From NCBI GenBank assembly GCA_951406725.2, contig OX597828.1, positions 5,828,001-5,892,000 of the forward strand: DNA of 64,000 nt, in the 5' to 3' direction. Below the pieces are notes generated by a model, which had not been told where the DNA came from, ran no database searches, and saw only the letters and a list, made by a program, of their open reading frames with translations. Positions 4,797-60,661 of this stretch are shown here, one piece after another. The stretch is from Octopus vulgaris (lineage: Eukaryota). Made by a program: the position numbers and the translations under genes. Positions within the stretch are counted from its first letter, which is position 1, and every line of letters begins with the position of its first letter.

Positions 4797-5825
4797 AGGC
4801 ACAGAAAAAGCTAAGCGCATGAAAACCCGTGCTAAATCTGTGGCCTTAGATATTCTGAATGATAAATGGCAAGAAAAACCTCTCTATGGCAAATACCCAA
4901 AGAGAGCAAATAATGCAGATGTTGACAAAGCCCTGACCCATCAATGGCTAATGACCTCTGGCTTAAAATCTGAAACAGAGGGGTTTATCATAGCAGCTCA
5001 AGATCAATGCCTACCAACAAGAAACTACCAGGCCAACATATTAAAGATCAGAAGCAGTCCAACGTGTCGTGTATGCCAGCAACAAAATGAAACCATTGAC
5101 CATGTAGTCTCCAAGTGCAGTCTTCTAGCGCCTACAGAGTATCTCAACAGACACGATGGAGCTGCACAATATATTCACTGGGTAATCTGCAAAAACCTGG
5201 ATTTGCCCCATGAAAAAAACTGGTAGGAACACAAACCACCCCCAGTGCTTGAAAATGACCACATCTCACTCCTCTGGAACTTCACCATTCAAACTGACAG
5301 AAAGATAGATGCAAATAGGCCAGACATCATATTAAAAGACTTCAAACAAAGAACATGCCTCCTCATTGATATGACTGTCTCAATCGATATAAACGTATCT
5401 GTCAAGACCTACCAAAAACTGAGCAAATATAAAGATCTTGAAATGAAATCAGCAAAATGTGGAACCTGAAGACTAAAACAATACCTGTTGTCATAGGTGC
5501 CCTGGGAATGATAGCAAAAGGGGCTGATAGCTACCTAACTCAGATACCAGGAAACCCCAAAATGGCAGAAATTCAAAAGATAGTGCTCATGGGAACTGCT
5601 CATATCCTACGCAAAATACTTTCTATGTAATCTCAAGGTTTAAAACTAACATAATTTTCGGTTAAAAAAAATTTTTTTTTTAGACATTCATTAGTACAAC
5701 CCCCCCCCCAAATATATGGCACACTATGCACAACAACAACATGAACTTCCAACCTGTTGTCTCTTGAGGTCTCTGGGTGAGACTTGGAGCCAACTTGTAC
5801 AAATATAAAGCAAAAGTCAAACATA

Positions 5826-39799: not shown

Positions 39800-39900
39800 T
39801 GATGATAATAATAATAAAAATAATAATAATAATGATAATAATAATGATAATAATAATGATAATAATAATGATAATAATAATAATGGTAATAAAAATAATG

Positions 39901-39943
<43 letters not shown>

Positions 39944-39959
39944 TGATGATGATGATGAC

Positions 39960-39996
<37 letters not shown>
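39764..39996. repeat. (AAT)/(GAT) compound microsatellite
   Basis: Direct reading. Confidence 0.97.
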
Positions 39997-39997
<1 letters not shown>

Positions 39998-40277
39998 ATG
40001 TATATATGCATATATGTGTATCTTTCTTGCCATGCACGGACGTTTAAACAGGCGGACGCGTTTTTCTTTCTCTCTTCTATCCTTTCTCTTTCGAAAAAAT
40101 GTTTCTCCCAGTGTTCATTATTCCCCACTCGTTCTGGACTAACGACCATCCATATTTGTTTTTTTCTTTTCTTTTGGTTTCCTTGTATGAGTCCATTGCC
40201 ATTTTTGTTCCCGAATTTGACCCCTCATAGATCCTAAGTTTTATTTTAGAATTTATGGGAACAAATGTCTTAGAAGA

Positions 40278-40340
40278 CTTATATTGTCGTCGAATACTCG
40301 AAATGAGGAGTAGATAGACAACCGACAACTGATGAAGGGT
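40278..40340 (+). ncRNA. Candidate non-circularly permuted hammerhead ribozyme (copy A) within a repeat element at about 40020-40430
   Basis: CTTAT-A-TTGTCG ... ACTC-GAAA-TGAG ... CGACAA-CTGATGA-A-GGGT; all three stems can pair. Confidence 0.65.
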
Positions 40341-40454
40341 CCTTTCTCTGCGTTAGCTTGTCCTGCTTTCCCTCTTTTTCTCGTTGTTAAAATATTTCAT
40401 GTTATTTGCTTATTTAACCGTTGATGACGTATGTATATACATACACACACACCT

Positions 40455-40538
<84 letters not shown>

Positions 40539-40686
40539 TCAACAAAAGAATGAAACCTAGATATTAGACAAATGGACGATTATTTGTGTATGTTATAGTT
40601 TAGAACAAACAGTAAAAGATTGTCGTTATAGTACTCGGATTTTCGATTATCGGAGCGAAGAGCTACGATGCCTTCTCGTTTTAATG

Positions 40687-40747
<61 letters not shown>

Positions 40748-58129: not shown

Positions 58130-58270
58130 CAACAACATCGAAAAATATCTTAGGAATGAGAACCGAGGTTTCAAATTTCCCCCAAGACACCTGAAGAAGG
58201 CTAGAGGTATTCCAGCCGAAAAGTTGTGTTAAGGATGAGGACAATATCCGTCAAATGTAAATAATGTAAA
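58013..58270 (+). mobile_element. tRNA-headed SINE-like element with (AAT)n linker and hammerhead-bearing tail
   Basis: A box TGGTGTAGTGG at 58021, B box GGTTCGTTTCC at 58065, (AAT)n, then a hammerhead motif. Confidence 0.7.
58186..58230 (+). ncRNA. Minimal type I hammerhead motif (probably decayed in stem III)
   Basis: GACAC-CTGAAGA-A-GGCT...AGCC-GAAA-AGTT-GTGTT. Confidence 0.65.
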
Positions 58271-58454: not shown

Positions 58455-59240
58455 AAGGGAGAGAGAGAGAGCGAGAGAGAGAAATTCGTACAAACATACA
58501 TATACATGACTGAAGTCAATAGACACCCTTTGTAATCATACCCTTTGAATTTTCAATGCAAGGATTATATTAGGCCTTATTGCTTTACATTAATGTTGTT
58601 AAACTGTTATTAAATTATTTACGGCAAATATACATATATTTATATATTTATTGTTTTGTTATAGTATCTAAATTAATTTATGTTACTTTTTAGGACCTGA
58701 AGAGTGGCTAAATACCTTTAAATTGGAATTATGATGAATTTAAATTTTTTTAAATGAAATTTTGATATTATCTATTTATATATTTAGTCATGTGACGCGC
58801 GTACTCATTTTAATGTTTTGATCTGTTATGGGATTTTTAGAATAATGATTATAAGATACCTAATTAATTTCTATGTGGTTATTATTGATAATATCTTTTA
58901 ACCATTGATGAATAACTAAATAGCGGTTTGTCTCTTAATTCTAAATATATATATAATATATTGAGAATTTTGATTTAGTTTGATAAATAAAATTTTTCCC
59001 CTGTTAGCTTGGAATTATTACATTCCCTAACTATTAATTATATATATATATATATATACATATAAATTAATAAATAAAATATATGCATACATAAATACAT
59101 ATATATATATATATATGAGTACAGGACACCACAAATAGACGTAGAACTCAACGAGAAACGAAAACGTAAAAACAAACATGGAAACGGACTTTTTTAACAA
59201 AGAAAAAACAGAGTACAAGACAAACAATACAAGGAAAATT

Positions 59241-59302
59241 CCCCTTCATCAGCTGTCCCTATTTCGACTCCATGCGTGTTTCGAAGGTAAGGACAGAACA
59301 CG
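59241..59302 (-). ncRNA. Candidate non-circularly permuted hammerhead ribozyme (copy B) within a repeat element at about 59115-59480
   Basis: Minus strand CGTGT-T-CTGTCCTTA-CCTTC-GAAA-CACG ... TAGGGACAG-CTGATGA-A-GGGG. Confidence 0.7.
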
Positions 59303-59534
59303 ACTCGTCGAACTAGCCCTTCCTGCGAAAGAATTAAATAAATTTCCTTTGCAGAGGGGTAAAAACAAGGAAAGAAAAAAATGTGACAAAAACAGGACGT
59401 AAAAACAATACAAATAAAAAACAAAGACAAAATAAAAATACAAATACAAAAAAATACAGTACAATTTATTGCATGACTGAGCGCCCTCGCGTTGTTTCGT
59501 TTCTTTTCTATTCTCCAAGAAAGTTTATATATAT

Positions 59535-60645
59535 CTGTAAGTATAATATGTGACAATTATTCGGTAGCCATGATAAAATTCCGAGTTTAGGATATCGGGG
59601 CGGTAACAACGCCGGCATCTCTTCAGTTATCGGCCATCGAAAAAGGTACTATGGAAATTACCGTTAAAACAAAGGGAAATTACTCTATATCCGCTAAGGA
59701 CACGGTTTCGACGAAGAAATACGTAGGCCCTACAGGGGGTAATTACTAGGCCAGGTTCAATAATCACACCTTGAGCTTCAGGCCCCAAAATGACCACATT
59801 ATCCAGTCATATATGGTCTTTAAAAGATAAAGGTGTCACTTAAAACATGCATTGGAAGATCTTAGCTAAGTATAAGCCCTACACCAACGGCAATGGAATG
59901 TGCGATCTTTGTGATATGGAAAGGTGGCTCATCTGAAAAAGCAGCTTAGACTCTGCCACGAGTCTAAATTCAAGAACTGAACTTTTTGGATCATGTCCAT
60001 ATGGGCCTAAATATTTGTTACGTTTTTGGTCCCCCCCCCCCGAGATTACAGATAGCACTTGCTTTCTATATTGTGTCCACATACAAGCTTTTTATCTCTC
60101 TATATTTTTACTTATATTTCTTATATATTCTTTATATTTTTTTACATAATTATAGAGATATTGTTTTATAGTTTTATTGCTCTTATATTTATTTTACACA
60201 TAATTGTTCTCAATTCTACCTTCCACCCTGCATTTTCCTGTGCGTATATAGACGTGTATATGGAACTTTTTGTGCGAGCGTGAGGATGTGTGCACGTGTG
60301 TGTGTGCGAGCGCGTATGTGGGTATGTATACATTTTTTGGCGAATGTGTGGATGAGCATATGTGTGTTTCAAGTGAGGGTGAATGAGTATATACATATAG
60401 GCGCATGTACGTAGGTGTGCGGGCAAGCATGTGTATGTATGGACATGCTCCTTTACGCGATTACTATGAATATTTTTACTCCCTTAACTTTACTCCCTCT
60501 CCTTACTTAGCGGGCATTCTAATAGCTCTTTTGTCTTAATAACGGTTAATCACACAGTAGTATTTATAGCATTTTTCCGATGGCCCGATAACTGAAGAGA
60601 TGCTGGCACGGGTTTCAACCTCGACATTCGAAACTCGGAGTTATA
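59535..60645 (+). mobile_element. 5'-truncated Penelope-like element: decayed GIY-YIG endonuclease C-terminus flanked by inverted pseudo-LTRs
   Basis: KKYVGPTGGNY*ARFNNHTLSF, TTLSSHIWSLKDKG, WKILAKYKPY...CDLCDMER...LNSRTELF at about 59700-60000; inverted repeats at about 59577-59645 and 60572-60643, each with a CTGAAGA hammerhead core. Confidence 0.8.
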
Positions 60646-60661
60646 TATATATATATATATA

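Follow-up and report, generated by a model that had tools for sequence, protein, structure and literature searches.

The 64,000 nucleotides of the Octopus vulgaris genome analysed here, referred to as the window (GenBank assembly GCA_951406725.2, contig OX597828.1, positions 5,828,001 to 5,892,000 of the forward strand), contain at 40278..40340 a group of short strands that resembles a hammerhead ribozyme with its parts in an unfamiliar order. The locus raises the question whether this is a real hammerhead, how its strands are connected and what kind of element carries it. The initial annotation described a hammerhead core in non-circular strand order, a predicted cut after 40283 and a second, divergent copy in the same window, here called copy B, the first being copy A. 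The strings quoted for copy A are present, stem I (40284-89/40323-28) has six Watson-Crick pairs, stem III (40278-82/40303-07) has four and one G-U pair, and both cores are in place. A descriptor that demands both cores, five pairs in stem I and four in stem III in the order site-GAAA-CUGAnGA matches the window only at 40329(+), which is copy A, and at 59252(-), which is copy B. Dinucleotide shuffles of the window (n=400) gave a mean of 0.0025 matches, and none contained two. The hammerhead-like motif in the window is real and not due to chance, and the annotated strand order stands. Nucleotide positions follow standard hammerhead numbering, and the predicted cut lies after 40283 as annotated. 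Rfam models gave no match in the window at the gathering score, and the eight weak matches in 39900-40700 included no hammerhead.

Copy A, at 40020..40435 (+) between TA-rich and (AAT)n tracts, belongs to a non-coding repeat family, family A, and is truncated at its 5' end; the extent in common with other copies is 40020-40409/40435. Copy B belongs to the young family B and lies at 59040..59464 (-), with G10.1 at 59322, the predicted cut after 59297 and the core at 59252-59246; a short inverted piece of the family-B unit (59463..59534, +) is joined to its truncated 5' end. The flanks of the two copies are homologous, as had been annotated, and the architecture described below is common to both. 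The alignment set comprised 189 copies, of which 134 full-span copies were kept and 55 partial ones were excluded from majorities. Majority sequences were taken from nine groups of 3-46 copies, with the single-copy groups G and H outside the counts and one ambiguous C2 cell set aside from the covariation counts. Since MAFFT failed to align families A-F with the version found in Naiad elements upstream of GAAA, blocks were anchored by sequence motif.

Stem I pairs in 53/54 cells and stem III in all 44 called cells of the nine subfamily majorities. The decisive helix is stem II. Five leader bases pair with the five bases directly before GAAA by Watson-Crick pairs in 45/45 cells, with double changes in three of five columns, and this score was reached by none of 100,000 shuffles. 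Such shuffle counts overstate independence and are no probabilities, because the nine subfamilies are related and stem II has only two sequence types among them, GAGCA/UGCUC and GAAGG/CCUUC. Because the leader pairs with the strand before GAAA, the chain opens between A9 and G10.1, and two extra helices lie there. In the closing helix Pc, the bases after A9 form 4-6 Watson-Crick pairs with an upstream CCCU tract in 9/9 subfamilies, and one column occurs with both A-U and C-G. The hairpin Ph occupies the gap from this tract to G10.1 without a spare base on either side; it folds in 9/9 subfamily majorities (-8.6 to -11.9 kcal/mol). A9 is neither joined directly to G10.1 nor separated from it by 1-2 nt, but enters Pc, while G10.1 follows Ph. 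As no spare bases surround Pc and Ph, stem II, Ph, Pc and the core would meet in a perfect four-way junction that keeps A9 beside G10.1. A further helix, P0, is formed between leader and G-C linker in 53/54 cells, three of its six columns being doubly changed; it might connect stems I and II at their outer ends and so replace the usual loop contact. As read from the sequences, the split-core molecule is an S-G-C circle opened within block C, with the order Pc - Ph - stem II 5' strand - P0 - [III, cut, I] - [II, GAAA, III] - P0 - [I, CUGAUGA] - Pc. CUGANGA, GAAA, U16.1-A15.1 and a base other than G at position 17 (A, C or U) are kept in 9/9 subfamily majorities and in both window copies. G10.1-C11.1 is likewise kept family-wide while the stem sequences vary, and the core bases are invariant. 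Nested folding programs did not recover the split-core fold (z -0.7 to -1.2 and +0.9).

In copy A, all parts lie on the forward strand. The 5' strand of Pc (40219..40225, with an altered junction base) is followed by Ph (40226..40258, -8.1 kcal/mol), whose end abuts G10.1 at 40259, the first base of the true stem II 5' strand (40259..40263). The 5' strand of P0 (40265..40270) and the GAA strand of an internal loop between P0 and stem III (40271..40277) lead into block S (40278..40289), which consists of a stem III strand with U16.1 at 40282 and A17 at 40283, the predicted cut 40283/40284 and the 3' strand of stem I. Block G (40295..40307) holds the stem II 3' strand (40295-99), GAAA (40300-03) and the other stem III strand. 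It is followed by 40308..40322, with the AGUA loop strand in 40308-40315 and the P0 3' strand in 40316-40321. The stem I 5' strand and the CUGAUGA core occupy 40323..40335, with A9 at 40335, and the 3' strand of Pc (40336..40341) lies directly 3' of A9, where the initial annotation had seen a bulged "extra A" and one strand of stem II. This A is instead the first base of Pc.

Copy B passes a descriptor of the split core and copy A fails it. In copy B stem II is intact and P0 has 9/10 pairs, whereas in copy A two of five pairs of the true stem II are mismatched (the third and fourth), and P0 keeps five of six, having lost its first, terminal pair. The competing hairpin UACUC/GAGUA, annotated as a possible alternative conformer, exists in copy A and is its predicted minimum-energy fold; it is no conserved switch, as five of the nine subfamilies have it disrupted and only A, D, E and F keep it. 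Copy A is probably a decayed relic that would be poor, slow or dead as a ribozyme. We consider it likely, with some reserve, that a non-coding retroelement with a self-cleaving split-core hammerhead in its master RNA gave rise to copy A, which has since decayed.

How P0 is accommodated in space is a separate question, as P0 has to connect the far end of stem III with the tops of stems I and II. For family A, we lean slightly towards a two-copy, strand-swapped fold over a bent fold of one copy, and this leaning stands outside our confidence in the reading just given. Two antiparallel copies swapping strands would presumably require no bend. The one-copy fold, in which the P0-III loop bends sharply and P0 returns as a strut to the tops of I and II, is a serious but less probable alternative. 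It is favoured by the uniform spacing from GAAA to the core (24-26 nt in 9/9 subfamilies) and by the loop of the octopus Naiad, which in the record covered is a 3-nt bulge with tandem G-A and a U-U, permitting a bend. We take this loop to match the textbook definition of a kink-turn. Against a one-copy fold, the loop is AGUA/GAA in A, C, C2, D, E and F (in E as the majority; some E and D copies differ), which we assume to be a non-bending bulged-G motif; in copy A (40271..40277 / 40308-40315) it presumably corresponds to the bulged-G/sarcin-ricin type. Furthermore, Naiad_EuTe has just a one-base bulge in the part of its record covered, so that stem III and P0 form 15 pairs interrupted by one base; this nearly continuous helix would be too long to fold back, which argues on geometric grounds for two copies. 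Dimeric cleavage has been reported, in the part of the source covered, for the hammerheads of axolotl retrozymes (PMC7229834). A single kink-turn reading for all subfamilies fails, with B4 lacking the tandem G-A and the bulge length varying in A-F.

If the master RNA cuts itself after position 17, the 5' ends of inserted copies could reflect the site. In family B, 71 copies were anchored 149 nt downstream of the predicted cut; 20 of the 61 at risk have their 5' end within -2..+27 of it, compared with 3/64 in the neighbouring downstream and 3/41 in the neighbouring upstream bin (Fisher p 4e-5 and 0.002), in bins that were chosen after family B had been inspected. In family A the cut bin holds 10/28 and its neighbours 4/18 (p 0.26) and 8/36 (p 0.18), a non-significant trend in a mixed sample, where 34 of 70 copies end at +58 or beyond and many come from a sister family with the same anchor. 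Most ends lie 5-24 nt past the cut and not on it, so stalling of the reverse transcriptase at the fold fits too. Read-through of the site, seen in about two thirds of family-B copies, requires uncut or re-joined RNA. The pile-up may be an indirect footprint compatible with the predicted self-cleavage. The same read-through (41/61 of the copies reaching the ribozyme) would suit a fold of hammerhead descent that no longer cuts and serves as a signal, e.g. one bound by the element's reverse transcriptase, and so would the known alignments, which in the part of PMC10085705 covered have no insertion of more than 1-2 nt between CUGAnGA and the stems. Yet the falling away of the family's 5' ends at the predicted cut and the retention of the core bases, of U16.1-A15.1 and G10.1-C11.1 and of non-G at 17 despite varying stems speak against a non-cutting signal, which we regard as unlikely.

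Still less probable is a type-SGC hammerhead whose stem II is formed by the GGGN strand after a bulged A, as the initial annotation had proposed with GGGU/ACUC. Both window copies satisfy the descriptor under this drawing. In copy A the strands are pairable (three Watson-Crick and one G-U pair), and since this pairing is better (-1.2 kcal/mol) than the damaged leader pairing (+1.2), copy A alone might use it. Family-wide, GGGN is pairable in 34/36 cells, beyond most shuffles (1,569/100,000 reach it). However, only 17/36 cells are Watson-Crick and two are mismatches, the duplex energies of -1.5 to +0.7 are far weaker than the -4.6 to -5.4 of the leader pairing, and the GGGN strand already has its upstream Watson-Crick partner in Pc. 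In Naiad_Ovul, the coral-group records and others, as far as the supplement was covered, the leader matches the strand before GAAA and the post-A9 bases do not. The annotated topology fails on these points. A type-SGC molecule with a leader-trailer closing helix had been our own first reading and was dropped after the leader stem II reached its full Watson-Crick score.

The claim that A and B are distant relatives in one family under structural selection was to fall if related copies broke the pairings as often as neutral sequence. Individual inserted copies do decay neutrally (non-CpG changes in family A: core 17/350 vs flanks 170/2975), while selection is visible only between subfamilies, where the covariation upholds the claim. 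Chance pairing within a neutral repeat would account for this decay and for only 3/46 family-A copies (21/34 in family B) having an undamaged core together with all 16 pairs of the three stems. Yet compensatory changes have occurred in stems I to III, in P0 and in one Pc column, both from subfamily to subfamily and from phylum to phylum, and given these and the shuffle control of the window its probability is negligible.

The same strand order and pairings were found, read by eye, at eight published 3' ends of Naiad elements in the part of the PMC8557442 supplement covered. These were eight of 38 "ctgatga" occurrences (nos. 25-62), among which two others have an apparently canonical order and the remainder are mostly coding sequence or from other clades. 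The fold occurs in Naiad_Obim, Naiad_Ovul and Naiad_EuTe, in three records preceding the Naiad_Aacu, Naiad_Anas and Naiad-1_Movir headers, in one further record and, with a short stem I, in one preceding Naiad_Mley; in the portion covered, Naiad_Omin has no split-core end. Stem sequences vary freely among these records, and subfamily B4 has exactly the stem I given there for Naiad_Ovul. According to the sections of PMC8557442 covered, Naiads lack canonical hammerheads, eight being flagged "HHR_half_core", Naiad_Ovul included, and are said to have been long inactive in cephalopods. A pattern for the octopus-Naiad version has 315 matches in the genome (G000) vs 0 in the control. One of 30 such loci (L412) has a reverse-transcriptase-like tail ~1 kb upstream of the ribozyme, which gave no Pfam match, and a search for a Naiad reading frame among 20 other GIY-YIG matches found none, 17 belonging to a family with C-terminal GIY and three matching nothing. 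BLAST of the A-F units against the Naiad ends returned no similarity except one off-target match. By sequence comparison, the units and the Naiad ends have the ribozyme architecture in common without homology at BLAST level.

The genome comprises 2.8 Gb. A tight GAAA...CUGAYGA pattern matches it 3,538 times, vs 0 for the reversed control, and a second pattern 247 times vs 3, some of these from an unrelated repeat. For family A, a first look gave 2328 candidates, the best others being 83-89% identical to copy A (40 scored); family B has 3815 candidates, is 92-97% identical and is younger than family A. The units are non-coding and, from tandem spacings, about 750-830 nt long, family A ~750 nt. 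They have TA tracts at the end, variable 5' ends and run-on past their own 3' end into the start, a terminal redundancy compatible with circular RNA. Inverted truncated partners with both 3' ends outward occur at 7/30 family-A loci, two of them near-duplicates. The units share with Penelope-like insertions 5' truncation, partial tandems, inverted partners, a tail and a microsatellite target, and such forms, including the (TA)n preference and the 3'-end ribozyme fold, characterise Naiad in the portion of PMC8557442 covered; unlike Naiad, the A-F units are non-coding. Coding in antisense was dismissed, only low-complexity frames occurring among the 40 longest listed. No ORF was seen attached in sense to an A-F unit; 6/230 loci had PLE-like protein matches.

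Several side observations concern these units. In both unit types the starts (L036, L002 and L138) have a donor-like GTAAGT with a pyrimidine tract behind it, and in B also CAG, cf. the retained 5'-UTR intron of Penelope. An intron in family B was rejected, with 76 donor-like matches and no spliced junction in 430 loci. At L094, L258 and L270, inverted partners are joined through self-complementary strands of stem I or III, which suggests template switches guided by the ribozyme's own pairings. Family B sequence also appears in runs labelled organisms C and D (X16-X20), of which X18 (organism D) covers 25/29 bins.

As to the mover, Naiads are said to be long inactive in cephalopods, yet family B is young. 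The genome has an intact family of 781 amino acids, with reverse transcriptase and C-terminal GIY-YIG, most copies being 94-99% identical. Its cysteine linker suggests Neptune or Nematis. The family has TA ends like the units and inverted partners in 6/40 loci, and no homology to the units was seen at BLAST level. The units seem not to be the family's own end, as they occur in only 3/20 GIY loci and in antisense; in widened GIY loci they occur in 4/20 (those three included), and in further loci in 2/40, without a direct junction. Assigning family-B units to this mover is suggestive only. At L181:3459-5107 an inverted ribozyme-bearing unit is joined without spacer to such a PLE ORF, truncated at its 5' end, a single case at an older locus and possibly a chimeric insertion. 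This young Penelope-like family with reverse transcriptase and GIY-YIG, seen at L184:2745-6180, has many intact 781-aa frames, and in its 3' end a hammerhead-like core occurs in degenerate form (UUGAUAAG...GAAAC), together with repeats rich in CCAAT/TGACGT.

Under our preferred reading of a retroelement with a self-cleaving master RNA, cleavage would follow position 17 (40283 in copy A) and release RNA of unit length, which may become a circle. A Penelope-like reverse transcriptase might prime at (TA)n and copy the unit RNA; copying would end just past the cut or, where the site is uncut or has been re-joined, continue across it. The genome's intact RT-GIY-YIG family is the probable mover of the young copies.

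Further traces of hammerhead-like sequence and retroelements were noticed. Two copies in the window, 59644-59573 (-) and 60573-60646 (+), are 78% alike and show the classical hammerhead order, CUGAAGA preceding GAAA-like bases. Another abundant repeat, which contains CUGAWGA-AGGCUG...CAGCCGAAA, lies at 58150-58250 (+) and at L061-L086; a 205-aa frame of this repeat at L071 looks, we assume, non-LTR-like. A common motif with GAAA before CUGAAGA occurs within an inverted repeat at L273:5224 and L289:5110, at L289 ~500 nt past the end of a PLE ORF. Window positions 5400-5520 (+) resemble the end of a non-LTR retrotransposon ORF.

Compared with known systems, the split core has every conserved core base and the three stems of type I, II and III hammerheads (Rfam; PMC3088659, as far as covered). 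Unlike in these, its strand order is no circular permutation of theirs, the cyclic order CUGANGA - GAAA - site being reversed, and the Rfam models miss the fold. With type-SGC (HRIMA-1 and variants; Eckert et al. 2023, PMC10085705, here and below for the parts covered) it has in common the cyclic order site - GAAA - CUGAnGA, a short link between stems I and II, an extra helix near their outer ends and a pseudoknotted core. It differs in the split block C, the stem II strand far upstream, the opening at A9/G10.1 and three extra helices (P0, Pc and Ph). In the interaction helix of type-SGC the G-C linker pairs with the 3' trailer, whereas here the linker pairs with the 5' leader and the trailer with the Pc 5' strand. 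Judged by these features, the units are not type-SGC as defined. Eckert et al. assume that the CUGAnGA block cannot be interrupted; neither octopus nor metazoans are mentioned in the text and supplement of PMC10085705 as covered, and unlike its examples the split core sits in high-copy animal retroelements. Core insertions in hammerhead variants are of 1-2 nt, with no helix junction, in the part of Perreault et al. (2011, PMC3088659) covered. Like animal non-LTR retrozymes (PMC7229834; preprint 10.64898/2026.07.22.740005, both covered in part), which are proposed to be moved by Penelope-like elements via circular RNA and some of which act as dimers, the units are non-autonomous and bear a ribozyme. 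Retrozymes have type I hammerheads in tandem units of ~150-450 bp, while the A-F units are dispersed, mostly truncated, ~750-830 nt long and split-core. No description of the split-core wiring was found in the literature searched, in which few subscription papers were in scope. It appears to be a previously undescribed variant of the known hammerhead class, surprising at the level of the family. As the rule of the uninterrupted CUGAnGA block is broken, existing descriptors and Rfam models miss a whole class of such folds.

A wider joint reading can be offered tentatively, and we regard it as rather doubtful as a whole: a novel hammerhead opened at A9/G10.1, rebuilt by a four-way junction and acting as an obligate strand-swapped pair would be the Naiads' missing ribozyme across animal phyla, and a parasite family into which it was carried would have outlived the Naiads here by changing to another Penelope-like clade for its mobility. 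If the obligate pair is true, only tandem or paired transcripts would cut. The non-circular permutation, previously seen in metatranscriptomes and one bacterium, is now found in animal genomes at thousands of copies. The open A9/G10.1 junction could be a new attachment point for sensors in RNA engineering, and as the natural RNAs are short, every step is testable in vitro. With the split core it can be tested directly why Naiads appeared to be without hammerheads and what role ribozymes have in Penelope-like retrotransposition.
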